From assembly GCA_027623675.1 (NCBI GenBank), contig JAQBVF010000019.1:12746-76745 (forward strand): a stretch of DNA of 64,000 bases, written 5' to 3'. Position 1 is the first letter of the stretch. Every line of letters starts with the position of its first letter. The stretch comes from Chloroflexota bacterium. GTDB taxonomy: Bacteria; Chloroflexota; Dehalococcoidia; Lucifugimonadales; UBA3495. A model generated the notes under the pieces. It was given only the letters and a program-made list of their open reading frames with translations, did not search any database and was not told the origin of the DNA. Position numbers and translations under genes: made by a program. Shown piece after piece: positions 8,000 to 54,449 of this stretch.

Positions 8000-8074
8000 G
8001 CGGGCGTAACTCAGGGGTAGAGTGCTTGCTTCCCAAGCAAGATGTCGTGGGTTCAAATCCCATCGCCCGCTCCA
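8000..8074 (+). tRNA. tRNA-Gly (CCC)
   Basis: Acceptor GCGGGCG/CGCCCGC, anticodon arm CTTGC-TTCCCAA-GCAAG, GTTCAAATC T-loop, CCA end; TGcTATAAT upstream. Confidence 0.97.
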
Positions 8075-9799: not shown

Positions 9800-10417
9800 A
9801 TGTCCCGATTATCAGCCTTTCTATTCGCGGCCCTCATGGTTGGCGCGATAGCCTGCGGGGGTTCCGCCACCGGACCCGCCTCAGCCACATCGCCCGCCAT
9901 TAACACTGGGGCCACGCCCACACCCGCTGCCGGCCCGACTACTGACGCGCCACTGGTGGCCCAGCCCAAACTCGGGACAAACGTGGGGGAGACGCTCCCG
10001 CCGTTCGAGTTCGCCCTGTTCGACGGCTCGGTGCGGTCAACCGCACAGCTAGCCAGCCAGGGGAGGCCGGTGTTCCTATTCTTCTTCGCCACCTGGTGAC
10101 CCGTCTGCCGCTCCGAGTTACGGAGCATGAAGGATGTCTACCCCGAGTACGCCGACAGGGTCGATCTCTACGCCGTGGGCCAAAGCCCTTTCGAGGACAT
10201 CGATTTGATGGAGGAGTACCGGATCGAGCAGGGCTACCCGTGGCCCGTGGCCAAGATCGACCCCAACGTGCTGAAAAGCCTGAATGTGTTCGTGCAGTCC
10301 ACCAAGATCGCGCTTAACGGCGACGGCGTGATCACCTACCGGGCCGGCTACGGCGACGGTGGCGTGGAGGTCTGGCGGGAGGTCTTTGAGAACCTGGTGG
10401 ACCCAGCCAACCGCTAA
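9800..10417 (+). CDS. thioredoxin-fold redoxin (TlpA/AhpC-like) lipoprotein, probable selenoprotein (TGA 10097-10099)
   Basis: Lipobox AIAC; GRPVFLFFFATW-[TGA]-PVCRSEL gives a UxxC motif; frame continues to TAA 10417. Confidence 0.88.
10110..10126 (+). promoter_or_regulatory. putative bacterial SECIS hairpin
   Basis: GCTCCG-AGTTA-CGGAGC starting 10 nt after the TGA. Confidence 0.7.
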
Positions 10418-10435
10418 GCAGACGGCTCGGCGTGC

Positions 10436-11161
10436 TTACTGGACGCGCCGGTAAACCAGATCGACCAAGCCGGCCGTTCCCGCTGCCGACTGCAGCCGGA
10501 AGACCGCGACATCCCGGGTGTCTCCGGTGATGCCGCCGGGTGTGGTGGACTTTTTGAAGGTCCACAGATACAGGTTGTACTTGTCGCTGATCAACGATTC
10601 AAAGCTGTTCGGCTCCGAATCCATGTACCCGTTGACCACCAGCGTATTGAAGTCGAGGGCCGTGAATTCGGCCAGGAACACCGCCAGGGTAACGTCCTTG
10701 CCGGTCCCGGTGAGCGGGTCGATGATCTGGAACGGTGTTTTGCCGTCTTTCGCGAAGAAAACCACACTCCTCACGCCGTCCGAAACATCGTCGGTGGCTG
10801 GGAACACGGCCGGATAGGCCAGGGTTCCGGCCACGCCAACACCGAAGGCCCTCTCCGGCCATAGCTTGGTGATCTCCTGTGTGACATTGTCGGAGGTGAC
10901 GGCCTTCAATCCCAACACATCATGGTCGAACCGGGAGATGATCCCGACGCCGCCCTGATCGGTGAAGAACTGGTTGGCCGCGTTGAATACCGTATCCGAG
11001 TCGTTCGCTACCTGGGCGTCGCGGCTCTCGTCGGTTGTTCCGGACACCGACGACGTGACGATGCCCGCCAACACGCCTACGATGGCCATCACGGCCAACA
11101 GTTCAATGAGGGTAAAGCCTCGGCTGTTGTTGAGAACAGCATCCCTGATTCTTTGAAACAT
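10436..11161 (-). CDS. type IV pilin / pseudopilin-like protein
   Basis: Class III signal RG|FTLIELLAVMAIVGVLA. Confidence 0.88.
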   Translation of the reverse strand: MFQRIRDAVLNNSRGFTLIELLAVMAIVGVLAGIVTSSVSGTTDESRDAQVANDSDTVFNAANQFFTDQGGVGIISRFDHDVLGLKAVTSDNVTQEITKLWPERAFGVGVAGTLAYPAVFPATDDVSDGVRSVVFFAKDGKTPFQIIDPLTGTGKDVTLAVFLAEFTALDFNTLVVNGYMDSEPNSFESLISDKYNLYLWTFKKSTTPGGITGDTRDVAVFRLQSAAGTAGLVDLVYRRVQ

Positions 11162-11361
11162 CTAGTTTGGTCCCCCGGTCAACCTGAATCTGACGCCGTC
11201 GGTGCGCGGCAAGCAGCCTTCGGTCTGGGTGCATTTCTTAGGGTTCTTGCCCTTAAGGTTAGGCCCGCCGGCCGGAAAAATCGCCGGTGACTGCCTGCAA
11301 TTCGGTTGGGGGAAAACCCGCAACCTGACCGGAACCCGCCAGATGTTTTGGCAAATGGGGG

Positions 11362-12042
11362 TTGAGTTTGACGGCCCCCGCGCACGGTGGTAGATTCTCG
11401 CCAGCCGGGACCAGCCTATCTCCGCCGGGACAGGGGGCCGGCCGGGATTGCTTGATGCCGGGAGATGCGGTGCCAGCCAAAGTTATCTGCAAGACCATCG
11501 ACTTGCTCCAATTTCCCGCGATCGCGGAGTTCATCTGGCATCTGCTAACGAGGGTCAGCCGGCTGACCGAAGACGAGACCGGCGCGGCTAAGCAGGTGCT
11601 TGGGGTTGAGGCCGTCCGGTTCGGCCGGGTCCGGGTGGCGGAAGGCCGGGTCCTGCGCCTGTTTTTCCGGCTGAACGGCTCCAGGGCTTTCACCCTGTTC
11701 CACACTCTCAACCTACCGGCGGAGGGGCGTCACTCCAGGGGAAATCTGGACCTGCTGGTGCACGAGATGGTCCACGTGCGGCAATTTGAATCGGTCGGTA
11801 CGATCTACATCTGGCAGGCTTTGAGGGCGCAAAAGGCCGAGGGATACAGCTACGGCGGTTGGGAAGGCCTGGCTGCCGAAAGGCCGGACGGGAAGCGGTT
11901 CAGCGGGTTCAACCGCGAGCAGCAAGGTCAGATCGCCCAGGACTACTACAACCTGGTCCTAACACCCGGCCTGCCCCAGGAAAACCCGGTCCGGCTGGCA
12001 TACCAGCCGTATATCGAAGACCTGCAGGCTGGAAGCATTTAA
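11362..12042 (+). CDS. HExxH zincin-like protein (DUF4157-like); true start probably later
   Basis: LLVHEMVHVRQF and FNREQQGQIAQDYY. Confidence 0.65.
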   Translation: MSLTAPAHGGRFSPAGTSLSPPGQGAGRDCLMPGDAVPAKVICKTIDLLQFPAIAEFIWHLLTRVSRLTEDETGAAKQVLGVEAVRFGRVRVAEGRVLRLFFRLNGSRAFTLFHTLNLPAEGRHSRGNLDLLVHEMVHVRQFESVGTIYIWQALRAQKAEGYSYGGWEGLAAERPDGKRFSGFNREQQGQIAQDYYNLVLTPGLPQENPVRLAYQPYIEDLQAGSI

Positions 12043-13878: not shown

Positions 13879-14262
13879 ATGACCGACGATTTCAGACAGC
13901 GGGTAGAGGCTGCCAAGAAGCAGACGAAGTCCGTCACAGTTACCGAATCTCAGAAGCGGCTTGAGGCCAACCCCGCGGCCCTGATAATCGAGACCCGGCT
14001 CCGCGAGAACGTGCCCGTGGAAGAGCAGCACGAGAACGTGGTCTTCCTTTCTGTCGAGGACCTGGACGCTCAGGCAGAAGACCGGTCCAAGCTGGACCCC
14101 CGCTTGGCGGACCCCAACGTGGAGATCATCACGACTTGAAAACTTGGTAATAGGGCCGCCGTCGGCGCCCAGATACTCCAAGACATGGGATTCAACAACG
14201 TGACCTACATGGAAGGCGGCATGGCAGCCTGGAACGAGGCCGGCCTCCCAACAAAGAAGTAA
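13879..14262 (+). CDS. single-domain rhodanese, probable selenoprotein (TGA 14137-14139)
   Basis: IITT-[TGA]-KLGNRAAVGAQILQDMGFNNVTYMEGGMAAWNEAGLP; TGA sits at the active-site Cys of the rhodanese loop. Confidence 0.85.
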
Positions 14263-14329
14263 GAGCCGCTTAATCTGAAAGTAGATTGAATGGTCGAAAC
14301 ATTTATAGAGCCTTGGCAATGCCAAGGCT

Positions 14330-15892
14330 CTATATTATTTTCCCCAGCCTTTCTCGATTGAATCTTCCTGTAGCAGCGAGCAATCCCAGATTGAATCCCG
14401 TATCCCGTTGTTTGTTGGCTTGCGAGGACCACTCCTCGGCCAGACTCTTTAGTTCTTTGGCCGTAATCAACACTAGGTTACGGCCAAAATGCTGGGCGTG
14501 GTAGCGAATCGCTTCGGCTTCAGAATCTTCAGTGAACTCTGGGCCAATCACAAGAAATACTGGCACCGGCTTATCTGCGTGGTTCATGTACCCATCAAAT
14601 TGAGCGATATGGTCTCTCAAATTAACCGGGGATTCTTTAGATTTGTTATCCCACATGAGATAGTTCATCTGTAGGCTCAACAGGCCATCCGGATGAGCGG
14701 TGCCGCGTTGATGTAGGGGGGAATGATTCAGCAATTCCTCGAATAAGTAGGAGGTCGCATCTTCGAATTTAGATTCAATCTCTAGATCCTTGTCGATAAT
14801 GTGTTGGGCACGTAACTTGTCGTGGTCTCGGGCGGCAAGCTCTTCATAAAACTCGTACCAGGCCTCTCGCTCATCAGATTCGGCAACGATTCTGGGGCGA
14901 AGCTGATCAAAGTGCTCAATCACTCTCGCCACCCGTTCTTCAATAGCACCGTAAGCGTTGATGTTCAATTGCCGGCACCAGGTGGTTAGCTGGTCGCTAT
15001 TTAACCCAAACCTTGGGGAGTTGCTGGCGATCGCCTGTGACGCCGGAACATACCTGAGTACCCGTTCAACCAAAGTATCGATGTTGTCGTATCGTCCGAA
15101 CTCCACGTTGGCCCGGCTTAAGATTTCCGTGAGATGCGATTTTCTGCGTAACGGCCGATGCTCCATCAGTTGTCTGTAGCTCTCGCTCCTTAATTCAACC
15201 CCTGCAAACTTCCGAATGTTGATTGCTATCTCTTCTGGAATAATATCAAGGTCTGCGTCACCGTCTTGCCGGACTGAAAACAACAAGCCCAAACCCTGCA
15301 GGTGACGTCTCGCCTCGCCAATCTCAGTCCTCGTGTGAAGCAGATTTGATGCTTTCGGGAACTTCCCGAGTTTGGCCTCAAGAAGGCGGTGGTCGGATTC
15401 TGTGATGCCCAGCCTCGCACGTAGTTTCTTTAAGAGATTAACTTCATCTGCACTTTTGGCATCTTCGTTTTCCCAGGCAACACGTAGGACGAAGAAATAC
15501 AGATCCAAATCGCGATACCTGTGGGTGTCGTCATTTCCTGCCGCCAAATCGGATAGTTCAAGCTCGTTCGACCGATTGACCACCGATTGTTCGAAGGCAA
15601 TCACCTGTTCCTCTGAATGAGAACTTGGCAGTAGAAAATCGTATTGGTCCAACAATACATCAATCAACAAGACGTACGACAGGACTCGGAGGTCATTCCG
15701 AGGATTCTTGTACAACGCCTTTTCAAGATTCCCAGTAACCGTCTGTTCATGAAGGTACTGCGGCTTAACCTTGATTAAAGCCTCACGCAACTCGTCTTCA
15801 GTCAGTTGGCGGTGATCCACTACGTGGGCCCCGGCGATGCGCCGAAGGTCAGTTAATGTGCTAATCGCTTCTACGGCATCTTCGAATTTCAA
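14330..15892 (-). CDS. hypothetical protein with C-terminal PD-(D/E)xK nuclease-like domain
   Basis: 520-aa AT-richer ORF; FE...HPDGLL...WDNKSKE...VFLVIGPEF. Confidence 0.6.
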   Translation of the reverse strand: MKFEDAVEAISTLTDLRRIAGAHVVDHRQLTEDELREALIKVKPQYLHEQTVTGNLEKALYKNPRNDLRVLSYVLLIDVLLDQYDFLLPSSHSEEQVIAFEQSVVNRSNELELSDLAAGNDDTHRYRDLDLYFFVLRVAWENEDAKSADEVNLLKKLRARLGITESDHRLLEAKLGKFPKASNLLHTRTEIGEARRHLQGLGLLFSVRQDGDADLDIIPEEIAINIRKFAGVELRSESYRQLMEHRPLRRKSHLTEILSRANVEFGRYDNIDTLVERVLRYVPASQAIASNSPRFGLNSDQLTTWCRQLNINAYGAIEERVARVIEHFDQLRPRIVAESDEREAWYEFYEELAARDHDKLRAQHIIDKDLEIESKFEDATSYLFEELLNHSPLHQRGTAHPDGLLSLQMNYLMWDNKSKESPVNLRDHIAQFDGYMNHADKPVPVFLVIGPEFTEDSEAEAIRYHAQHFGRNLVLITAKELKSLAEEWSSQANKQRDTGFNLGLLAATGRFNRERLGKII

Positions 15893-16146
15893 CGCTCACC
15901 CTCAAATTATCCACAGTTCGATTCGGTCGGTGCTGTTACCCGATACCAAGAAATGCGATAGTGCCTCCAGAAAACACGGCGATTATATTCTAAGCGTAAC
16001 GGTAATGCACTTCAGCAATGTCCTCGAGGATATATTCCTTTCAAGATCTTTCGTATGAAACTGCCAAATATCTTGTCTTCGACCCGTTTGACGGTCGTGT
16101 CCCTTAGTGTTAGATTTTGCCGAAAGTCTTCCAATGGGGGGTGGCT

Positions 16147-22866: not shown

Positions 22867-22959
22867 TGGCGGAGGGAATGGGATTCGAACCCATGAACCC
22901 GCTTTTGACGGGTTAAGCGCTTAGCAGGCGCCCGCACTAGGCCTCTATGCGATCCCTCC
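22867..22959 (-). tRNA. tRNA-Ser (GCT)
   Basis: Acceptor GGAGGGA/TCCCTCC-G-CCA, anticodon loop CT-GCT-AA, long variable arm. Confidence 0.97.
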
Positions 22960-43406: not shown

Positions 43407-43518
43407 GGCTGGCAACGGCGTCAGAATGCCGCCGGCGCTTGTGTCTGCTACACTGTCCCGCAACTCAAGAGCAGGCAACCCTTACAGGCAACCCTTAGTT
43501 GCCGCATGGAGGCCCTCA

Positions 43519-44469
43519 ATGGCAGTTACATTTGGCACCTCGCTACCCAGCCGGGGCGATATGGCCGGCCCGGAACAACTCCGCAGCGTGGCCCAGCGGG
43601 CCGAGGACCTGGGGTACGACCACGTTTGGGTCAGCGATCACATCGTTCTGCCCCAGAAGGTCGACTCCTTCTACCCCTACGCCGCCGACGGCGTTCCCAC
43701 GTTCAAGCCCAGCGAGCCTTATTACGAGCCATTGGCGGCCCTGAACTTCATCGCGGGCTGCACCCAGCGGGTCCGGCTGGGCACCCACGTGCTGATCATC
43801 CCCTACCGCAACCCGGTGCTCACGGCCAAGATACTGTCCACGCTGGACGTGTTGTCAGGCGGCAGGGTGATACTGGGCGCGGGCGTCGGCTGGATGGAAG
43901 AGGAATTTCAGGCCATGGGGCTGGACACCTTCAAGGAGCGCGGGGCGGTCACCGACGAGTACCTACAGCTATACAAAGAGCTCTGGACCAAGGACAACCC
44001 GTCGTTCCAGGGCAAGTATTACCAGATATCGGACAGCGGTTTCGAGCCCAAGCCGGCGCAGAAGCCCCACCCGCCCATCTGGATCGGCGGCCACACCGGC
44101 CCGGCCATCCGCAGGGCTGCCAAGTACGGGGACGGTTGGATGCCCATCGGCCTACGCCCGCCGGCCATTCTGGAACCGGAGGAACTGGCGGGCAAGATCG
44201 CCCGCCTGCGGAAACTGACCGTGGCAGCGGGACGGCCGGAAGACGCGGTGTCCCTGACCTTCAGCACCGGGGTGGCCTTCAACGACTCGGCCGGCAGTAC
44301 CCGTCCCATGATGCAGGGGCGGCCCGAGCAGATAGCCGCCGACCTGCGCCAGTATCAGGACCTGGGAGTAGCCAATTTCATCATCAACTTCCAGGGCGGC
44401 ACGGTGCCAGAGTTACAGGAAAACATGGAGCGGTTCTCCCGCGAGGTCATGTCCCTGATCCCGGACTGA
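43519..44469 (+). CDS. LLM-class F420-dependent oxidoreductase
   Basis: WVSDHI, GRVILGAGVGWMEEEF, PKPAQKPHPPIWIGG. Confidence 0.92.
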   Translation: MAVTFGTSLPSRGDMAGPEQLRSVAQRAEDLGYDHVWVSDHIVLPQKVDSFYPYAADGVPTFKPSEPYYEPLAALNFIAGCTQRVRLGTHVLIIPYRNPVLTAKILSTLDVLSGGRVILGAGVGWMEEEFQAMGLDTFKERGAVTDEYLQLYKELWTKDNPSFQGKYYQISDSGFEPKPAQKPHPPIWIGGHTGPAIRRAAKYGDGWMPIGLRPPAILEPEELAGKIARLRKLTVAAGRPEDAVSLTFSTGVAFNDSAGSTRPMMQGRPEQIAADLRQYQDLGVANFIINFQGGTVPELQENMERFSREVMSLIPD

Positions 44470-44618: not shown

Positions 44619-45473
44619 CTAAGCGACGGGCGCCTCGGTTACCCCGTATTTCTTCTCCAGTTCGTAGACGGCGTCCAGGCCCAGGAGACCGGCCACATCC
44701 CAACGGGTGCCGTAGCGCTCCGGGTCGACCGCACCGTTCTCCATCAACTCGGTGAACGACTCCTTGAGCTGTTTGTAGATCAGCCAGATGGTGCTGCCGC
44801 AGATCATGACCTTGTAGCCAAGGGCGTCCATCTCCTTGGTGTTGGCCAGGTCGCCGTTGTACATGCGGGGCAGGTCCGCCATGTCCCGGGCGTAATTCTC
44901 GATATCCTCGCGGCTCTTGATGCCGTCGACGAAAACCAGGTCCGCGCCTGCCTCGATATAGGCGTGGCACCGCTGGATGGTATCCTCCCAGCCGGTCACG
45001 GCGTAGGCGTCGCAGCGGGCGATCACGACAAAGTCGGGGTCCACCCGGGCGTCCAGTGCAGCCTTGATCTTCTGCACCGCTTCGGCTTGGGGAATCACCT
45101 GCTTCCCGGCGAAGAAACCGCATTTCTTGGGGAACAACTGGTCTTCGATATGGACCCCGGCCACCCCGGCGGACTCGTACTCGCGGATGGTCCGCTGCAC
45201 GTTCAGCGGGTTGCCGTATCCGGTGTCGGCGTCGCAGATGACCGGGATGTCCACCGCTCCGGCGATGTACTTGGCGTTGGCCACCATCTCAGTCATGGTC
45301 AGCAGTCCCACATCGGGGAAGCCGCGCTCGGCGGAGGTCCCGGCGCCGGTCATGTAGACGGCCGGCAGTCCCACCGACTCGGCGATCTTGGCATGGAAAG
45401 CGTTGAGCACGAATGGCGCCACGGTCAGCCGGTCCGAACTCAGCAATTGGCGTAATTTGGCAGTGGTTTTCAT
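44619..45473 (-). CDS. isocitrate lyase / PEP mutase family (PrpB/OAH-like)
   Basis: DADTGYG, HIEDQLFPKKCGF, IARCDA. Confidence 0.9.
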   Translation of the reverse strand: MKTTAKLRQLLSSDRLTVAPFVLNAFHAKIAESVGLPAVYMTGAGTSAERGFPDVGLLTMTEMVANAKYIAGAVDIPVICDADTGYGNPLNVQRTIREYESAGVAGVHIEDQLFPKKCGFFAGKQVIPQAEAVQKIKAALDARVDPDFVVIARCDAYAVTGWEDTIQRCHAYIEAGADLVFVDGIKSREDIENYARDMADLPRMYNGDLANTKEMDALGYKVMICGSTIWLIYKQLKESFTELMENGAVDPERYGTRWDVAGLLGLDAVYELEKKYGVTEAPVA

Positions 45474-45679
45474 CGGTTTGTCTCCTCTAAATCGGGGCGG
45501 TGCCCAGGCAGTCCCCAGGTTTGCAAGCATGATAACCCAGGGCCTGCTTGACCGCCACCGGGGACCCCGGCGGCCGACGATTCCGTCCGGGCGGCAAACC
45601 CTGGAGCCTGGTAACTCTGACGCCTGGTAAAATGAAAGCGGCGTCACAAGATCTAGGGCCAACGGGATTGGAGAACGAC

Positions 45680-46285
45680 ATGAATGACGTATACCCAGTA
45701 TCCCTGAGCGGTGAGCTTGATCCGCACCTGAGCCGGTGGCTCTGGCTGGTTAAGTGGCTCCTGGCCATCCCCCATTTCATCATCCTGGTCTTCTTGTGGG
45801 TCGCCTCCGTCTTCCTGTGGCTGGTAGCGTTATTCGCCATCACCTTCACAGGCAAGTACCCCAGAGGGATATTCGATTTCAATCTGGGGGTGATGCGGTG
45901 GACGTGGCGGGTGAGCTACTACACCTACGGCGCCCTGGGGACCGACAAGTATCCACCCTTCACCCTGAAGGACGCCGACTACCCGGCCAGGCTCGATGTG
46001 GAATACCCGGAGCAACTTTCCCGCGGCCTGGTGTGGGTCAAGTGGTGGCTGCTGGCGATACCCCATTACATCGTGGTGAGTTTCTTGCAGGGCGGCCCCG
46101 GACTGCGGAACGGCGGACTGACCTTCGTGCTGGTCATTTTTGCGGCTATCACCCTCCTGTTCACCGGACGTTATCCGGCCAGCCTCTTCTATCTAGTCAT
46201 GGGGTTTAATCGGTGGGCCCTTCGCGTGTTCGCGTATGCGGCCCTCATGCGGGACGAATACCCGCCGTTCCGCCTGGACCCATAG
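45680..46285 (+). CDS. DUF4389-type membrane protein (two internal repeats)
   Basis: Twice LSRxLxxVKW..LAIPH..FTGxYP..YPPF. Confidence 0.8.
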   Translation: MNDVYPVSLSGELDPHLSRWLWLVKWLLAIPHFIILVFLWVASVFLWLVALFAITFTGKYPRGIFDFNLGVMRWTWRVSYYTYGALGTDKYPPFTLKDADYPARLDVEYPEQLSRGLVWVKWWLLAIPHYIVVSFLQGGPGLRNGGLTFVLVIFAAITLLFTGRYPASLFYLVMGFNRWALRVFAYAALMRDEYPPFRLDP

Positions 46286-46821: not shown

Positions 46822-47499
46822 ATGAAAACACCATTAAAAGTTCTCACGCTGGGCTCGAATTGGGACCGCCTTGACCAGGCTTTTACCTTTCTGTCCAGCC
46901 AGGGAATCGTGGAGTTTGTTGGACCTGCCGATCGGGGGATCCATGACGCCGTGGCGCTGGAACGACCGTCTGTAATCATGATCAGTCCCGGTTACGATGC
47001 GGCCCGGCAGGCGCTATTGGAGCGGCGACCCGTTTCGCCGGACCGCCTGCCGCCAGTGCTGTTGTGCCTGGACCACGATAGTCTGGAAACCGATGAACTG
47101 TACGAATACGCCGACGATTTTCTGCTGGTCCCAAGCTCTGCCGCCGAGATCCAAAAGCGGCTGGGCCGGTTGGTCCTGGGCAAGCCGCCCGAACTGCCCG
47201 CGCATATGCTGCAACTGGGAACAATCACCCTGGACACACGCATCTACGAGGTCAGGGTAGCGCAGAAGCGGGTGGAACTGGCCTGGATGGAATTTCAGTT
47301 GCTCAGGTTCATGATGGAAAACTCGGGCCGCATATTCACCCGCGACGAGTTGTTGACCAACGTCTGGAGCGTGGACACCTTCGGCGGCACCCGGACCGTT
47401 GATGTCCACATCCGCAGGCTCCGGCAAAAGCTGGGGTTACACGGCAACACCTACATCAGAACGGTGGCCAACGTCGGCTACGGCCTGGTCGACGTCTAA
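46822..47499 (+). CDS. OmpR-type winged-helix regulator with atypical receiver (GlnR-like)
   Basis: EFQLLRFM..GRIFTRDELLTNVW..GGTRTVDVHIRRLRQKLG..TVANVGY; no canonical acidic pocket. Confidence 0.8.
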   Translation: MKTPLKVLTLGSNWDRLDQAFTFLSSQGIVEFVGPADRGIHDAVALERPSVIMISPGYDAARQALLERRPVSPDRLPPVLLCLDHDSLETDELYEYADDFLLVPSSAAEIQKRLGRLVLGKPPELPAHMLQLGTITLDTRIYEVRVAQKRVELAWMEFQLLRFMMENSGRIFTRDELLTNVWSVDTFGGTRTVDVHIRRLRQKLGLHGNTYIRTVANVGYGLVDV

Positions 47500-47603
47500 C
47501 GCCTCCCCCGCCCGTTTTCAGCACTATCCCCGGCCTATTTCAGAACCGCCCCCGGCTGCCCGCGCCACCGGCATCCCGCCCAGCCTCTCCCTAACCCAGT
47601 CAC

Positions 47604-47663
47604 GTTACATGGCGTTTACATAGGGTTTCCCGACCGGTAACCCAACGGTCATCGTTTCGTAAA
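47604..47663 (+). promoter_or_regulatory. GlnR-like phased binding boxes upstream of the nitrogen operon
   Basis: Six 5-mers at 11-bp period: GTTAC, TTTAC, TTTCC, GTAAC, GTCAT, GTAAA. Confidence 0.55.
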
Positions 47664-47733
47664 ACCCTTCGTGCATCCTGTTGATTGCGGCCCACCTAGT
47701 CGGGCGGCAGCGCACCCAGCATGGAGGTCCATC

Positions 47734-48090
47734 TTGAAAGAGGTCATCGCGTTCATCAGGCCAGACAAGTGGCAGGACACCCGTGAGGTTGCCTGCGCCT
47801 TGGGGGCCGAGGAGATCATGCATTGGCGGGTCCTGGGCCGGGGCCGCCAGCGCGGCCTGCGTTATCTGAGGCCTCTGACCGGCGGTGAAGAATGGGGCAT
47901 GCAGTTCCTGCCCAAGTGGATGGCCAGTTGGCTCATCGACAGCAGCCAGGTCGACGCTTTCGTATCCGCCATCATCCAGGCCAACAACACCAACAACTAC
48001 GGGGACGGCAAGATATTCGTCTGCCCGGTGGACGAAGAATCGGACGCGGCCCCGGCGGTTAAAACCCTCGACGCCCAAACGCGCCTTTAA
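47734..48090 (+). CDS. PII family protein, NifI2-like
   Basis: GGAGG + TTG; MKEVIAFIRP..VLGRGRQRG..FLPK..NNYGDGKIFVCPV. Confidence 0.85.
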   Translation: MKEVIAFIRPDKWQDTREVACALGAEEIMHWRVLGRGRQRGLRYLRPLTGGEEWGMQFLPKWMASWLIDSSQVDAFVSAIIQANNTNNYGDGKIFVCPVDEESDAAPAVKTLDAQTRL

Positions 48091-48116
48091 CGAAACGGGA
48101 TTGGATGGGATGCACC

Positions 48117-48764
48117 ATGAAACGTGAAGGGATCAACTACCCCAAATTCAAGGACCAATTCGCCCTGATGGACTTTGAAGCTGAACCATTGCCGGCGCTC
48201 TCCCTGTACCCGGTGCCCGAAGCATGCGACCTGAGCGATTGGACGTTAACGCTAACCGGGTTGGTGGGCGAACGCCGCACCATCGGCAGGGAAGACCTGC
48301 GCAAGCTGCCCAGGGTCCGCGAGAAGTCCCCCCTGGTCTGCCAGATCTTCAACTGGTCGGAGGAACCCGAGGTCGAGGGCGTTCGGTTGGTCGACCTACT
48401 GAAAGTGACCGGCATTGACGCGTCGGATGATGGCTACTTCGCCTTCTATTCCGCCGACGGTTTCTACTTCGAGGGCCTGCCCAGGGCCATCGCCAGGGAC
48501 CCCAGGACTCTCCTGGTCTTCGGCTTGGACGGCAAACCCCTGCCCACGGAATTTGGCGGGCCGCTGCGTCTGTGGGTGCCCTTCTTGCAAGGTTACAAGA
48601 GCGTGAAATGGGTCAATACCATACGAGCATTCAGGAAGGACCCGGTGGGCATAAAGCGGCTGCTGGGCCAGAGCCGCACCTCGACCTTGGGCGCCGTGGG
48701 GCAAGACCGGGCCGGCGTGATCGTTGCCAGGCCCAACAACGGGGAGGCCAGCGTTGAGATCTAG
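48117..48764 (+). CDS. molybdopterin-dependent oxidoreductase, sulfite oxidase/MsrP family, no export signal
   Basis: WTLTLTGLV, LVCQIFNWS (Mo-ligand Cys), GGPLRLWVPFLQGYKSVKWV. Confidence 0.85.
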   Translation: MKREGINYPKFKDQFALMDFEAEPLPALSLYPVPEACDLSDWTLTLTGLVGERRTIGREDLRKLPRVREKSPLVCQIFNWSEEPEVEGVRLVDLLKVTGIDASDDGYFAFYSADGFYFEGLPRAIARDPRTLLVFGLDGKPLPTEFGGPLRLWVPFLQGYKSVKWVNTIRAFRKDPVGIKRLLGQSRTSTLGAVGQDRAGVIVARPNNGEASVEI

Positions 48765-50061
48765 CGTCAGCGGTTCAAATCGGGCATCAGACTTGGAGTC
48801 TGGAGTTGGTCCCAAGGCCGAGGGCCACCTGCCCACGCTCATCGCGTCGTTCCTGCATTTCGACCTGAGCTTCATGATCTGGGTGCTGCTGGGGGCATTG
48901 GGCATCTACATCGCCGACAGCGCCGGGTTGACGCCCGGACAGAAGGGCTTAATGGTCGCCGTGCCCATACTAAGCGGCTCGTTGCTGCGCATACCGCTTG
49001 GTCTACTCAGCGACCGTATCGGCGGCAAACGCACCGGCATCGCATTACTGGCCTTCCTCTTCATCCCGTTAACTCTGGGTTGGCAGTCTGGCGATAACCT
49101 GCCGAGCGTGCTGATCGTAGGGTTGCTGCTGGGCACGGCCGGGGCGTCATTCGCGGTCGCTTTGCCGCTGGCCAGCCGGTGGTATCCCAAGGAGCGTCAG
49201 GGCCTGATCCTGGGCATCGCCGCCGCCGGCAACAGCGGTTCGGTGCTGTCCAACCTGGTGGCGCCACGGTTGGCCGAAGCGGTGGGTTGGCACAACGTTT
49301 TGGCCTTGGCGATGGTGCCCCTGGCCGTTGTGCTGACCGCGTTCCTGCTGATGGCCAAAGACAAGCCAGGTCCGAGGAGCAAGGCCGGGACCGGCCAATA
49401 TCTGGCGGCGCTGAAACAACCAGACCTATGGTGGCTGTGCCTGCTTTACGGAGTGACATTTGGCGGATACGTGGGGCTGAGCAGCTTCCTGCCAATATTC
49501 TTCCGAGACCAATACGGGGTTAGCGCGGTGCAAGCTGGTTATCTCACCGCCATCGCCGCCACCGTGGGAAGCGCGGTCCGCCCCCTGGGCGGCTATCTGG
49601 GAGACCGGTTCGGCGGCGTTAACGCTCTGTCGGTCCTTCTACTGATCATCGCCGGGTTCTACGCTTCGGCCAGCCTGCTCCCGACGCTCGGTCCGGCGGT
49701 GCTGCTGATCGTGATCGGCATGGCTTGTTTAGGTCTGGGCAACGGCGCCGTATTCCAACTCGTGCCCGGCCGGTTCCCAACTGAGATCGGTGTTGCCACC
49801 GGCGTGGTCGGCGCACTGGGCGGGCTCGGGGGATTCGCTCTTCCCATCCTGCTTGGCAACGCAAGAGAGGCCACGGGTTCTTTCGGCCCGGGACTCTTGG
49901 TCCTGGCGGGGCTGGCGATCGGTGTTGTATCGATATTAAGAGTCCTGGCCGGCTCCCGGGAGGGGTGGCGCAGGTCGTGGCAGGAACCTAGATCTCCCGA
50001 AGAACTGGACCTTTCTCCGGTGTCGGACCGCGTGCCGATGACGCCGTCCCTACGGTCTTAA
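48754..50061 (+). CDS. narK: nitrate/nitrite MFS transporter (NarK/NasA type)
   Basis: SFLHFDLSFMIW, GASFAVALPLASRWYP, GNSG, TFGGYVG, GLGNGAVFQLVP. Confidence 0.92.
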   Translation: MRSSVSGSNRASDLESGVGPKAEGHLPTLIASFLHFDLSFMIWVLLGALGIYIADSAGLTPGQKGLMVAVPILSGSLLRIPLGLLSDRIGGKRTGIALLAFLFIPLTLGWQSGDNLPSVLIVGLLLGTAGASFAVALPLASRWYPKERQGLILGIAAAGNSGSVLSNLVAPRLAEAVGWHNVLALAMVPLAVVLTAFLLMAKDKPGPRSKAGTGQYLAALKQPDLWWLCLLYGVTFGGYVGLSSFLPIFFRDQYGVSAVQAGYLTAIAATVGSAVRPLGGYLGDRFGGVNALSVLLLIIAGFYASASLLPTLGPAVLLIVIGMACLGLGNGAVFQLVPGRFPTEIGVATGVVGALGGLGGFALPILLGNAREATGSFGPGLLVLAGLAIGVVSILRVLAGSREGWRRSWQEPRSPEELDLSPVSDRVPMTPSLRS

Positions 50062-50112
50062 GAAAGACTCTTCCCATTAGATTCTCCGCGTGAGATTCAC
50101 CGAGGAAACCTG

Positions 50113-51675
50113 ATGAAAACAGGCACCAACCCCATCGAACGTCACAAAGCCGAGAAAGACGGCCTGGACATCCTGACTGAGATCGAGGAACTGGCCGCCC
50201 ACCACGGCGGCTGGGAGACGCTGGAACCGGGAGACCGGGAGCGTCTCAAGTGGATCGGCACATTCTTCCGCAAGCCCACGCCCGGCCGGTTCATGATGCG
50301 CATACGCATCACCAACGGACAGGCGACGTCGCGCCAGTTACGCGCCCTAGCCGAGGCCGCCCGCCGTCTGGGCAACGATACCTTGGACCTGACGACCCGG
50401 CAGCAGATACAACTTAGGGCGATCCAGATAAAAGATGTGCCCGAGATATTGGAGGCCCTGCGCGGGGTTGACCTCACGTCGCTCCAAACCGGGCTGGACA
50501 ACGTGCGGAACGTTAACTGCTGCCCTCTGGCCGGACTGACCGGCGCCGAACTGTTCGACGCTTCGCCGGTGGGCTTCGAGTACACGGACTCTTTCCTCAA
50601 CAATAAGGAATTCAGCAACCTGCCCCGCAAGTTCAACGTGACCATCACCGGCTGTTTGGAGAACTGCACGCACAGCGAGACCCAAGACCTGGGCATGACA
50701 CCGGCGGTGCGGCGGTCCGACGGCGTTTCCGGATTCAACGTGACCGTGGGCGGAAAGATGGGATCGGGCGGGATGACGGTGGCCCAGCCGCTGGACGCGT
50801 TCGTCGAACAATCGGAGGCGGCGCGTCTGGCGGCTGCGATCACCCGGCTCTTTCGTGACGAAGGGTCGAGGGAGCAGAGGACCAGGAACAGGCTGGCCTT
50901 CCTGATCCAAGACTGGGGTATTGGCCGGTTCAGGTCTGAATTGGAAATGCGGTGGGGAAAGCCGCTGGAAGAGGCCCAGGAGGATGCCAGGACCACCGCC
51001 GGCACGGACCACCTTGGAGTGCAGGCACAGAGGGCCCCGGGTTTAAGCTCCGTGGGGCTATCGGTCCCAACCGGACGGGTGACCAGCAGCGACCTAGACG
51101 GTCTGGCCCGCCTGGCCGACAGCTACGGCAACGGCGAGCTGCGCCTGACCACCGGCCAGAACATCATCCTGGCCAACGTCGCCGATGCCGGTCTACCGGC
51201 CCTGCTCTCCGAGCCGCTCCTAAAAGTATTCTCGCCAAACGCCCATCCGTTTCTCAGAGGTCTCGTCACCTGCACCGGGAAAGACTACTGCAATCTGGCG
51301 CTGGTCGAGACCAAGACCATCAGCCTGGGCCTGTCGGAGCGCTTGGCGCAACGTTTCCCCCTGGCGGGTACAACGTCCATCAACTGGTCCGGGTGTCCGG
51401 CCGGTTGCGGCAACCACCACGCGGCCGACATCGGCTTTCAGGGCGCCAAGGCCCGGATCAACGGCGAGATCGTGGATGCCGTCAGCATCTTCGTCGGCGG
51501 GCGGACAGGCCCTGACGCCAGGCCCGGAGAGAAGATCATGGAGTTGGTTCCGGTGTCCCTGCTGGAAGACGTGGTCCCGGTGATCCTCAGCAACCTGGAC
51601 ACTTTGCGCAGCCTGCATCGGGACAGCGAGGCGGAATCGCGGGTAGTCATGGTCCCGGCCATGCCGGTCATCTAA
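50113..51675 (+). CDS. nirA: ferredoxin-nitrite reductase
   Basis: TTRQQIQ, DNVRNV, NLPRKFN, siroheme/4Fe-4S motifs CTGKDYC and SGCPAGCG. Confidence 0.9.
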   Translation: MKTGTNPIERHKAEKDGLDILTEIEELAAHHGGWETLEPGDRERLKWIGTFFRKPTPGRFMMRIRITNGQATSRQLRALAEAARRLGNDTLDLTTRQQIQLRAIQIKDVPEILEALRGVDLTSLQTGLDNVRNVNCCPLAGLTGAELFDASPVGFEYTDSFLNNKEFSNLPRKFNVTITGCLENCTHSETQDLGMTPAVRRSDGVSGFNVTVGGKMGSGGMTVAQPLDAFVEQSEAARLAAAITRLFRDEGSREQRTRNRLAFLIQDWGIGRFRSELEMRWGKPLEEAQEDARTTAGTDHLGVQAQRAPGLSSVGLSVPTGRVTSSDLDGLARLADSYGNGELRLTTGQNIILANVADAGLPALLSEPLLKVFSPNAHPFLRGLVTCTGKDYCNLALVETKTISLGLSERLAQRFPLAGTTSINWSGCPAGCGNHHAADIGFQGAKARINGEIVDAVSIFVGGRTGPDARPGEKIMELVPVSLLEDVVPVILSNLDTLRSLHRDSEAESRVVMVPAMPVI

Positions 51676-51766
51676 AAATGATCCACTAGAGATAATCTGC
51701 CACGAAAAACGGCGATAATCGCAAATGGGGAATCATCACGAGGATTAATCAAGGAGGGATTCAATC

Positions 51767-52084
51767 ATGAAAATGGTCCGAGCAATCATCAGGCCCGACA
51801 AGGAAGCCGAGGTGGCTTCCGCGCTGGCCAAGGCCAATTTCCCGGCCTTGACCAAATGGGACGTGCTGGGGCGCGGCAAACAGCAGGGCGTACAGGTGGG
51901 CGGCCAGGTCTATGACGAGCTGTCCAAGTCCATGGTGCTGGTCGTGGTGGAAGATGACCAAGTAGACTCGGTGCGCCAGACCATCGAGGATGCGGCTTTC
52001 ACCAGCCACCCGGGCGACGGCAAGATCTTCGTGACCTCGGTGGATTCGGCCCACACCATCCGCACCGGGCAGGCCGGAATCTAG
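51767..52084 (+). CDS. PII family protein, NifI1-like
   Basis: MKMVRAIIRP..FPALTKWDVLGRGKQQG..YDELSK..GDGKIFV..TIRTG; short T-loop. Confidence 0.9.
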   Translation: MKMVRAIIRPDKEAEVASALAKANFPALTKWDVLGRGKQQGVQVGGQVYDELSKSMVLVVVEDDQVDSVRQTIEDAAFTSHPGDGKIFVTSVDSAHTIRTGQAGI

Positions 52085-54048: not shown

Positions 54049-54135
54049 GCCGAGGTGGTGGAACTGGTAGACACGCGGTCTTGAGGGGGCCGTGGGCGAA
54101 AGCCTGTGTGGGTTCAAATCCCGCCCTCGGCACCA
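54049..54135 (+). tRNA. tRNA-Leu (GAG)
   Basis: GCCGAGG/CCTCGGC-A-CCA; anticodon loop TT-GAG-GG; variable arm. Confidence 0.97.
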
Positions 54136-54178
54136 CAACTGAAAGTCGGCCGGCAAACGCCGAACGTGTAGCGCACGG

Positions 54179-54254
54179 GGCGACGTAGCCAAGTGGTTAA
54201 GGCGGAGGTCTGCAAAACCTCTATTCGGCGGTTCGAATCCGCCCGTCGCCTCCA
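54179..54254 (+). tRNA. tRNA-Cys (GCA)
   Basis: GGCGACG/CGTCGCC-T-CCA; GAGGT-CTGCAAA-ACCTC. Confidence 0.97.
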
Positions 54255-54363
54255 TTCCCCCTTCGAAGACCAACCTCCCCTCATCCTCCGGTTCCTTTTA
54301 GACAGCGGACCACTTAACATCCAACCACCCAGGGGGTTATGCTCGTGTAGCCCCAGCCCAAAT

Positions 54364-54449
54364 GCCGGGATGGCGGAATGGCAGACGCGGCGGACTTAAA
54401 ATCCGCTACCTTAACGGGTGTGTGGGTTCGAGTCCCTCTCCCGGCACCA
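54364..54449 (+). tRNA. tRNA-Leu (TAA)
   Basis: GCCGGGA/TCCCGGC-A-CCA; GCGGA-CTTAAAA-TCCGC. Confidence 0.97.

Follow-up and report, generated by a model that had tools for sequence, protein, structure and literature searches.

A small sulfite oxidase-fold molybdenum protein linked to NarK, nitrite reductase and PII: a candidate assimilatory nitrate reductase in Dehalococcoidia and other prokaryotes

The operon and its molybdenum protein

The window considered here is a stretch of 64,000 nucleotides (nt) from contig JAQBVF010000019.1 of a Chloroflexota genome of the class Dehalococcoidia. At 46822-52084 it carries six closely packed genes, all on the + strand, among them one for a 215-aa molybdenum (Mo) protein of the sulfite oxidase (SUOX) family that shares one operon with genes for a NarK-family transporter and an assimilatory nitrite reductase. 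Analyses of this protein, of its relatives and of their genomes make it probable, with considerable room for doubt, that the Mo protein is a minimal, cytoplasmic, Mo-only assimilatory nitrate reductase of the SUOX fold, which would replace NarB/NasA and would be gated by a dedicated PII protein. The six genes are as follows.

46822-47499, + strand: winged-helix regulator of the OmpR/PhoB type without a recognisable receiver domain (PF00486 Trans_reg_C, 83.8 bits; no PF00072 match)
47734-48090, + strand: PII-like protein 'a', of a divergent subfamily (PF00543, 46.2 bits; cut-off 25)
48117-48764, + strand: Mo protein, 215 aa, candidate assimilatory nitrate reductase (PF00174 Oxidored_molyb, 87.6 bits)
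48793-50061 (start uncertain), + strand: NarK-family nitrate/nitrite transporter of the major facilitator superfamily (TIGR00886, 268.3 bits; PF07690, 146.7 bits)
50113-51675, + strand: NirA, ferredoxin-type assimilatory nitrite reductase with siroheme/4Fe-4S (NF007125, 517.9 bits; PF01077, 178.6 bits; PF03460, 132 bits)
51767-52084, + strand: PII-like protein 'b', nearer to canonical GlnB/GlnK, with a short T-loop (PF00543, 87.9 bits; cut-off 25)

A first-pass annotation of the window had given the order PII - Mo protein - NarK - NirA - PII, and the Pfam and NCBIfam rows of each gene bear this out, with the best NCBIfam rows of NarK and NirA both below their subfamily cut-offs (268.3 against 311.7 bits and 517.9 against 594 bits, respectively). 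The annotation also had the Mo and narK genes overlapping, which holds for some narK starts only. The overlap is 41 nt in the longest narK open reading frame (ORF), which begins at TTG 48724, and the other in-frame TTG candidates give an 11-nt overlap (48754) or a 28-nt gap (48793). Whichever start applies, the two genes are tightly packed on one strand.

The longest ORF of the Mo gene spans 48105-48764 (+), and an internal ATG at 48117 yields the 215-aa form, with a start (MKREG...) that is common to all close homologues; the closest of these are labelled SAR202 cluster or Dehalococcoidia, at 87% identity, which makes the organism a SAR202-type member of the Chloroflexota. PF00174 covers residues 36-179 (87.6 bits; cut-off 24), and no second Pfam domain was found at E <= 0.01 in the 215-219-aa protein, be it a dimerisation, haem/cytochrome b5, FAD/NAD(P)H or Fe-S domain. 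A Mo-ligand cysteine within LVCQIFNWS and the lack of a Tat or Sec signal had been pointed out in the first-pass annotation, and both observations stand: all 60 aligned family members have C75 (215-aa numbering), and the N-terminus MKREGINYPKFKDQFALMDFEAEP, read by eye rather than with a predictor, lacks both a twin-arginine motif and a hydrophobic stretch. A profile alignment pairs Cys75 with Cys98 of plant sulfite oxidase (1ogp, LQCAGNRR), the Mo ligand of that enzyme. Across the 60 family sequences, the pterin-binding stretch GGPLRLWVPFLQGYKSVKW varies little or not at all. Further invariant residues of the Mo protein are R3, K10, N79, W80, K180 and R181. The Mo protein appears to be cytoplasmic, and Mo-molybdopterin is its predicted cofactor.

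An AlphaFold2 model of the Mo protein, built on 60 family members (pLDDT 84.3, pTM 0.83), had 45 Foldseek matches in the PDB at E <= 0.001, and all of the best are SUOX-family Mo domains. These include chicken and plant sulfite oxidase (E ~6e-11 to 2e-10), YedY (1xdy and 1xdq; 27-28% identity, E 2e-10 to 1e-9), Thermus sulfite oxidase, SorA, SoxC and a Pichia nitrate reductase fragment (2bii, E 2e-8); the pterin-binding PruR proteins 7kom, 7rkb and 7kou were matched at E 2e-6 to 2e-5. When the family profile was compared with PDB sequences, plant sulfite oxidase 1ogp was found at E 1e-14, YedY at 1e-9 and nitrate reductase at 2e-6. Model and profile alike point to membership of the SUOX-fold Mo enzyme family. 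The 13-residue Arg-rich loop that follows the ligand Cys of sulfite oxidase is absent, with CQIFN-WS aligned against CAGNRRTAMSKVRNVRGVGW of 1ogp. This loop provides the anion-binding Arg in sulfite oxidase and eukaryotic nitrate reductase. YedY has a short C-x-x-x-W-S-type stretch after its ligand Cys, as in the Mo protein.

A profile search of 1.84 billion representatives returned 7778 SUOX-type proteins at E <= 1e-3 and 23 at E <= 1e-30, and full-length scores drop from ~330 to ~130 bits; by these measures the family is a narrow, well-separated clade. Candidates of at least 416 aa were searched for fused forms, and the 8 of 8000 that pass E <= 1e-20 are distant (32-41% identity), with none in the Mo clade; three of the eight carry a cytochrome-b-type domain (PF01292). 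In the Protein Atlas, the Mo protein matches just generic 'molybdopterin-dependent oxidoreductase' clusters. The genome from which the window comes encodes six PF00174 proteins in all, of which the Mo protein scores lowest on PF00174. The other five, on contigs C5, C13, C45 (in tandem, 13949-14491 and 15578-16120) and C3, are frames of 206-422 aa scoring 142-206 bits, and sulfite-oxidase-family enzymes are therefore unusually numerous in this genome.

A 2020 review names an 'uncharacterised, single-subunit, cytoplasmic' group of the sulfite oxidase family, citing Kappler 2008 and Workun et al. 2008 (PMC7759655), and the Mo protein is a member of this group. It has in common with these enzymes one Mo-pterin domain, the lack of a signal peptide and of haem or flavin domains, and the lack of an assigned function; it differs in forming a narrow clade with fixed NarK, nitrite reductase and dedicated PII partners. 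The closest solved structure by identity (27-28%) is YedY/MsrP of E. coli (1xdq, 1xdy), which likewise consists of a Mo domain only and also gives the best NCBIfam row (MsrP NF003767, 50 bits against a cut-off of 207). However, MsrP is Tat-exported and receives electrons from the membrane haem protein MsrQ, whereas the Mo protein has no signal and no such neighbour. An assignment as an MsrP/YedY S-oxide reductase was rejected on the score, the missing RR motif and the PII and NarK neighbours.

With the Mo domain of eukaryotic nitrate reductase (Pichia angusta, 2bih, 2bii), the Mo protein shares the fold, at the E-values given above, and a Cys-ligated Mo-pterin; if the nitrate reading is right, it also shares the reaction and a place in a NarK/NRT2 - nitrate reductase - nitrite reductase pathway. 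In contrast, dimerisation, cytochrome b5 and FAD/NADH domains are all missing from it, and the two are only 18-20% identical. A eukaryotic-type nitrate reductase was rejected, as neither these extra domains nor a CAGNRR-type Arg loop is present. Its nearest named relatives are MsrP/YedY and sulfite oxidases, with no specific relationship to the eukaryotic Mo domain, and a nitrate activity would thus be an independent recruitment of the fold. Eukaryotic nitrate reductase itself is derived from eukaryotic sulfite oxidase, with bacterial sulfite oxidases as outgroup only, according to a published analysis (PMC6400420).

Genomic company of the Mo gene and its coupling to PII

A pattern and tblastn scan of a one-genome-per-species collection found 124 stretches that encode a relative of the Mo protein, and the best 80 were kept as loci. 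These 80 are distributed over Chloroflexota (52), Nitrospirota (25, including Manganitrophaceae and Troglogloeales), Thaumarchaeota/Nitrosopumilales (2) and Lindowbacteria (1). With the window proteins as tblastn queries, a nitrite reductase was found at 67 of the 80 loci, a NarK-like transporter at 63, at least one of the two at 72, both at 58, and PII at 69. For the 58 loci with full flanks (at least 5 kb on both sides), the counts are 56 for nitrite reductase, 49 for NarK, 49 for both and 53 for PII. Synteny of homologues with narK and nirA, which the first-pass annotation had proposed to examine, is thus near-universal over four phyla, and it persists when the type of nitrite reductase switches. 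The two full-flank exceptions are L011 and L012, whose contigs carry a NirA-NarK pair, interrupted by frameshifts or stops, at a distance of ~1 Mb. Six other loci have no NirA or NarK; at five of them the contig ends at most 1 kb downstream of the Mo gene, and for L070 (flanks of 2.7 and 4.5 kb) NirA lies on a different contig of the same genome.

Pfam searches of 68 ORFs around 12 loci showed that the nitrite reductase beside the Mo gene varies, being plain NirA, NirA-Rieske or NirB-like, with the Mo protein and NarK constant. For instance, a metagenome-assembled genome (MAG) of Thaumarchaeota encodes a 651-aa NirA with a C-terminal Rieske 2Fe-2S domain (L067:3961-5916), with moaA and a TauE-family gene downstream of narK, and the gene order of L084 is identical. 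Five loci (L063, L068, L074, L077 and L079, at positions of ~8.7-12.2 kb in each) encode single NirB-like chains of 1041-1151 aa, in which a Pyr_redox_2/Rubredoxin_C flavoprotein is joined to a BFD-like 2Fe-2S module and a two-lobed NIR_SIR siroheme part; from their domains, these chains look like NirB with a duplicated NirA-type body. A NirB-like gene also adjoins the Mo gene in genome G092. Minimal archaeal clusters have the order NirA - Mo - NarK - MoaA, and L060 has NirA - NarK - Mo - siroheme synthase. Long open frames around NirA in G156, G371 and G263 were rejected as fusions, and the 1438-aa frame of L112 matches Pfam only in its NirA part.

Two NarK subtypes, ~25% identical to each other and both assigned to TIGR00886 (229-301 bits), adjoin the Mo gene. 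Both also adjoin canonical NarB, in the orders NirA-NarB-NarK (L110) and NirA-NarK-NarB (L204), and the Mo gene thus fills the slot of NarB in the same module. The NirA proteins of Mo-bearing Chloroflexota loci are 63-77% identical to that of the window, versus 44-48% in genomes that have NirA only. In one genome (G175, contig C39), a gene for a MobA-like molybdenum cofactor guanylyltransferase (L111:1631-2257) lies directly upstream of PII - Mo - NarK - NirA - PII. Such a gene would be odd if the Mo protein uses plain Mo-molybdopterin; it may serve the bis-molybdopterin guanine dinucleotide (bis-MGD) enzymes of G175 or may hint at a dinucleotide cofactor.

The tight coupling of the Mo protein to a dedicated PII is a feature beyond the first-pass account. 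PII-like 'a', whose start at 47734 agrees with the MKEVIA... start of 27 homologues, represents a divergent subfamily that accompanies the Mo gene and conserves a T-loop (GRGRQRGLRY...FLPK) and a GDGKIF motif. Its gene immediately precedes the Mo gene in 48 of the 52 Chloroflexota loci, and in 16 of the 80 loci (15 Nitrospirota and 1 Lindowbacteria) the two form a single in-frame fusion, with PII at the C-terminal end of the Mo domain. The fusion was verified by Pfam in 5 loci (PF00174 + PF00543, 367-395 aa), and one of the two best full-length representatives in the profile search has 381 aa, the length of a fused form. By a Rosetta-stone argument, the fusion suggests that PII 'a' acts on the Mo protein. 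In Nitrospirota, a homologue of PII-like 'b' directly precedes narK, as in L063, where it occupies 10025-10342 and overlaps narK (10339-11592) by 4 nt. Known PII-controlled pairs include GlnK-AmtB, and PII also controls cyanobacterial nitrate uptake and reduction. In both the known pairs and the present clusters, small PII genes adjoin or are translationally coupled with the transporter or enzyme that they would control, whereas the dedication of one PII subfamily to a Mo enzyme, with fusion in 16 loci, sets the present clusters apart. A complex prediction with three copies of PII-like 'a' and the Mo protein scored 0.00, controls were not run, and the result counts neither for nor against binding.

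At the head of the operon, the regulator at 46822-47499 has PhoB and NblR as its best NCBIfam rows, both far under their cut-offs, and a homologue lies upstream of the Mo cluster in just 3 of the 80 loci, the three nearest ones (L009, L011 and L012). It is possibly a transcriptional regulator of the operon, as an atypical orphan at its head. A sigma-70 promoter scan found 0 sites, and 2 terminator-like sites were found, fewer than the shuffled mean. The upstream neighbours are a luciferase-like monooxygenase (43426-44469), a PEP-mutase/isocitrate-lyase-family protein on the minus strand (44619-45662) and a DUF4389 membrane protein (45548-46285). Elsewhere in the window there is a tRNA cluster at 54049-54449, comprising tRNA-Leu(GAG), tRNA-Cys(GCA) and tRNA-Leu(TAA), with further tRNAs at 8000-8074 and 22867-22959, namely tRNA-Gly(CCC) and tRNA-Ser(GCT). 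The G+C content of the window is ~0.62, with dips to 0.50 at 14-16 kb and 0.54 at 8-10 kb.

Canonical nitrate reductases and the distribution of the Mo gene

Prokaryotic assimilatory nitrate reductase is placed in the dimethyl sulfoxide (DMSO) reductase family in a 2026 paper (PMC13381448). NarB/NasA/NasC have the same operon position, NarK subtypes and NirA partners (L110, L204) as the Mo protein and a distribution complementary to it, but their fold and cofactor are unrelated (bis-MGD and 4Fe-4S, ~720 aa). The domains PF04879, PF00384 and PF01568 are all absent from the Mo protein, and an assignment as a bis-MGD enzyme of the NarB/NasA type was rejected. As a positive control, the NirA-adjacent NarB of a relative (L110) has 720 aa, carries the Fe4S4, Molybdopterin and Molydop_binding domains, and scores ~535-540 bits on the NasC and NasA models.

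The absence of a bis-MGD nitrate reductase from the window, on which the first-pass annotation had built, was confirmed. PF00384 was matched twice in the genome (3.07 Mb, 48 contigs, 91.4% complete), on C17 and C26 and not on the window contig C43, and the genome-wide search that the annotation had called for found no NarB, NasA, NarG or NapA among these proteins; since the genome is 91.4% complete, absence of a canonical reductase is not proven by this result. One of the two proteins has 940 aa, an N-terminal NuoG-type 2Fe-2S/4Fe-4S module and 503 bits for formate dehydrogenase alpha versus 323 for NasC, and its gene sits behind NuoE-like and NuoF-like genes, which is the arrangement of NAD-linked formate dehydrogenases. 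The same gene type is present in NarB-bearing genomes (e.g. G374 and G160), and this FdhA-like protein is therefore not the substitute for nitrate reductase. The other protein, of 773 aa, is QrcB/ActB-like and has a TRRNFL Tat motif, i.e. it is exported.

Every PF00384 match was then examined in 20 cluster-bearing genomes, comprising this genome and 19 further ones. L103, L128 and L129 share their open frames with L097, L123 and L126 and were excluded from the NCBIfam scans; of the many paralogues in G221 and G235, four were classified by NCBIfam and the remainder by local BLASTP against nine references. None of the 20 genomes has an intact NarB/NasA among its PF00384 matches. Genome G175 has a second cluster, NirA-NarK-NarB, in which NarB is frameshifted between residues 142 and 143, and a split 677-aa PF00384 frame in G001 stayed unclassified. 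There are 13 PF00384 matches in G221 and 20 in G235 (L154, L159-L166, L177-L198), mostly tandem paralogues of ~940-1050 aa, and the one scanned, L154, passes TIGR03479 at 1014 bits and is similar to the alpha subunit of ethylbenzene dehydrogenase (882 bits). Hydroxylase-type Mo enzymes have expanded greatly in this one Dehalococcoidia family.

The distribution of the Mo gene relative to NarB was determined in a sample of 401 genomes of the class, searched in four ways: with the Mo profile, with NirA, with a NasC model and with a NarB protein from a NirA-adjacent gene. Thresholds were placed at score gaps after the scores had been viewed, at no less than 447 bits for NirA (next score, 367), at least 630 bits and at least 51% identity for the NarB type (next, 538 bits and 41%) and at least 712 bits for the NasC type. 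The NasC model NF047855 proved unusable as a census on its own, with formate dehydrogenases, many with an in-frame TGA, at 430-590 bits. Because these score like true NarB (540 bits), it was replaced by the NarB protein query and classified PF00384 searches. Seven genomes with probable FdhF-like proteins (630-663 bits on the NasC model; G066, G090, G109, G402, G178, G140 and G366) were excluded from the reductase-positive class; none of them is in the NirA-positive set, and the comparison below is unaffected.

The Mo gene was found in 13 of the 401 genomes, NirA in 67, a NarB-type protein in 37 and a NasC-type protein in 10. Among the 10 NirA genomes that carry the Mo gene, 9 have no NarB/NasC and 1 has it, in the frameshifted form (G175), whereas NarB/NasC is present in 37 and absent from 20 of the 57 Mo-negative NirA genomes. 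The Fisher test gives p = 0.0016 for this split over the 67 genomes, a value that overstates the case because the genomes include non-independent relatives; the thresholds, too, were post hoc. In 16 of the 20 NirA-only genomes, the NarK family has no match at E <= 1e-30 anywhere, the exceptions being G033, G038, G056 and the fragmented G126; NarK thus accompanies a Mo enzyme, either NarB or the Mo protein. NirA is solitary at all nine of the NirA-only loci that were fetched, and at one of these, in G386, short remnants of NarB and NarK lie beside the intact NirA (L132:6620-7115). Three Mo-positive genomes have no strong NirA match: G092, which has the NirB-like enzyme, and G054 and G136. In G054 (L203), the Mo, NirA and PII genes are jointly reduced to fragments, a case of co-decay, and in G136 (L202 = L054) the entire cluster is present with every gene frameshifted, which may reflect decay or long-read error.

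Proposed role, alternatives and significance

A minimal, non-canonical assimilatory nitrate reductase had been suggested in the first-pass annotation, and the reductase search and the synteny lend computational support to that suggested function. In such a pathway, NarK would import nitrate. The Mo centre, formed by Cys75 and the pterin dithiolene, would abstract one oxygen atom from nitrate, going from Mo(IV) to Mo(VI) with release of nitrite, and NirA or the NirB-like enzyme would reduce nitrite to ammonium. An external one-electron donor would have to re-reduce the Mo centre with two single electrons, because the Mo protein has no second redox cofactor. The likeliest donor would be the ferredoxin that feeds NirA, which is an economical guess for the window since NirA needs ferredoxin anyway; in other lineages, the Rieske or flavin/2Fe-2S module of the nitrite reductase may donate electrons. 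The NasG Rieske protein of Paracoccus offers an analogy for the Rieske/2Fe-2S modules in this role. PII-like 'a', adjacent or fused, would switch the Mo enzyme according to energy and carbon/nitrogen status, and PII-like 'b' would switch NarK likewise, by analogy with GlnK-AmtB. The analyses establish the fold, the conserved Mo-ligand Cys, the cytoplasmic location, the gene linkage, the PII fusion and the distribution complementary to NarB; the substrate, the electron donor and the regulatory part played by the two PII proteins are deduced from these.

Several observations weigh against a nitrate reductase. The 20 Mo-negative NirA genomes that also have no canonical reductase mean that this absence alone is not diagnostic, and some cluster-bearing genomes have other enzymes that could supply nitrite. 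Lindowbacteria G407 has a periplasmic NapA (979 bits), which could make nitrite outside the cell. The same may apply to a Tat-signal type-II protein from the DMSO reductase family, ~1160-1215 aa long, that may be an exported NarG/NxrA-like enzyme. It is found in G005 (L093), G408 (L117), G116 (L158), G175 (L186), G235 (L199), G212 (L156) and G407 (L123), with ~285-348 bits on TIGR03479 and 139-162 bits on NarG where scores are listed; an SRRDFL leader was read in L093 only, and the copies in two Thaumarchaeota MAGs and several Mo-cluster Dehalococcoidia MAGs are 54-64% identical. Nitrospira G409 has two contig-end fragments that may be NxrA. Additionally, the Mo and PII genes of L011 and L012 are ~1 Mb distant from the NirA-NarK pair. 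The Mo protein itself lacks a second redox centre, the cluster has no conserved electron-donor gene, and a search of longer proteins turned up no close fusion to a redox domain. The Arg-rich loop (CAGNRR) of sulfite oxidase is replaced by the shorter CQIFNWS, and among named families the S-oxide reductase MsrP scores best, at a mere 50 bits; the pocket is thus not readable as a nitrate site. The case for nitrate reduction by the Mo protein, which is favoured with moderate confidence, is built from sequence and context, and the cluster is tied to no cultured phenotype.

Part of this evidence would also suit an accessory reductase, similar to mARC/YcbX, that acts on a toxic or side-product N-oxygen compound (hydroxylamine from nitrite reduction, N-hydroxylated bases, or nitrite to nitric oxide) in a cluster serving nitrite or another nitrogen source. 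The nearest named relatives are indeed the S/N-oxide reductases YedY/MsrP (50 bits; 27-28% identity to 1xdq/1xdy), the anion-binding loop of sulfite oxidase is absent, and nitrite can also be moved by NarK-family carriers; moreover, nitrite-rich lineages (Nitrospira, Nitrosopumilales relatives) bear the cluster, and NirA without any nitrate reductase is common (20 of 57 genomes). However, an accessory enzyme should be independent of NarB, and instead the two nearly exclude each other (1 of 10, frameshifted, versus 37 of 57). The genomes with NirA only mostly have no NarK either (16 of 20), NarB clusters use the same NarK subtypes, and a detoxifying enzyme is unexpected in the minimal NirA-Mo-NarK-MoaA clusters. 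Overall, such a role is considered unlikely.

A sensor, in which the Mo/pterin domain binds nitrate, nitrite or pterin and signals to the attached PII, which in turn controls NarK and nitrite reductase, is judged to be less probable still. Mutual exclusion with NarB is a prediction of enzyme replacement and not of a sensor, the Mo-ligand Cys and GGPLRLWVPFLQGYKSVKW are invariant or nearly so in the 60 sequences, moaA lies within the archaeal clusters, and the model is much nearer to catalytic sulfite oxidases and YedY (E ~1e-10) than to PruR. Still, pterin-only binders of SUOX-like fold do exist in PruR (7kom, 7rkb and 7kou, E 2e-6 to 2e-5 in the fold search), the Mo protein has no evident electron-donor partner, and PII is fused in 16 of 80 loci and adjacent in 48 of 52 Chloroflexota loci. 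Lowest among the alternatives, and very improbable, is an enzyme of sulfur metabolism or repair, i.e. a cytoplasmic sulfite oxidiser or methionine-sulfoxide reducer that might, for example, shield the siroheme of NirA from sulfite. The best matches are sulfite oxidases (1ogp, E 1e-14; chicken sulfite oxidase, E 6e-11) and MsrP, SUOX paralogues are many in SAR202-type genomes (six in this one), and the archaeal clusters have a gene of the TauE sulfite-exporter family nearby. Nevertheless, over four phyla the linkage is to NarK, nitrite reductase and PII and not to sulfur genes. The Mo protein belongs to a tight, separate clade (23 representatives at E <= 1e-30 versus 7778 at E <= 1e-3), has the lowest PF00174 score of the six paralogues in its genome, and has neither the dimerisation domain nor the sulfite-binding Arg loop. 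What likelihood is left falls to functions outside nitrate reduction and these three alternatives.

In the literature searched, which covered few subscription journals and no supplements, no prokaryotic nitrate reductase of the SUOX fold, no cluster of Mo protein, NarK, nitrite reductase and PII, and no Mo-PII fusion was found. MSMEG_4206 of M. smegmatis is described as an unusual assimilatory reductase (PMC7816997). The balance tips slightly towards a second class of prokaryotic assimilatory nitrate reductase, structurally unrelated to the first, independent of the eukaryotic enzyme in origin, ~215 residues long and switched by a PII protein of its own, to which it is fused in Nitrospirota. 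It would be encoded in a NarK - nitrite reductase - Mo - PII cassette that moves between Chloroflexota (including the abundant SAR202 of the deep ocean), Nitrospirota, Thaumarchaeota and Lindowbacteria, and that is missed by narB/nasA surveys. The fold is known and the chemistry is known from eukaryotes; the role, architecture and regulation would be new for prokaryotes.

The question is directly testable with a single recombinant protein. If the nitrate reductase reading is true, the Mo protein would be the first prokaryotic nitrate reductase outside the DMSO reductase family, a natural parallel to the eukaryotic Mo domain, and the smallest nitrate reductase known, which would be of interest to enzymology and engineering. 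The dedication of a PII protein to a metabolic enzyme, and its fusion with that enzyme, would also gain a new example. Nitrate is the main fixed-nitrogen pool of the deep ocean and of groundwater, and at present it is from narB/nasA genes that organisms are judged able to assimilate it. Several uncultured lineages, among them SAR202-type Dehalococcoidia, non-nitrifying Nitrospirota such as Manganitrophaceae and some relatives of Thaumarchaeota, would then have been wrongly scored as incapable of using nitrate.

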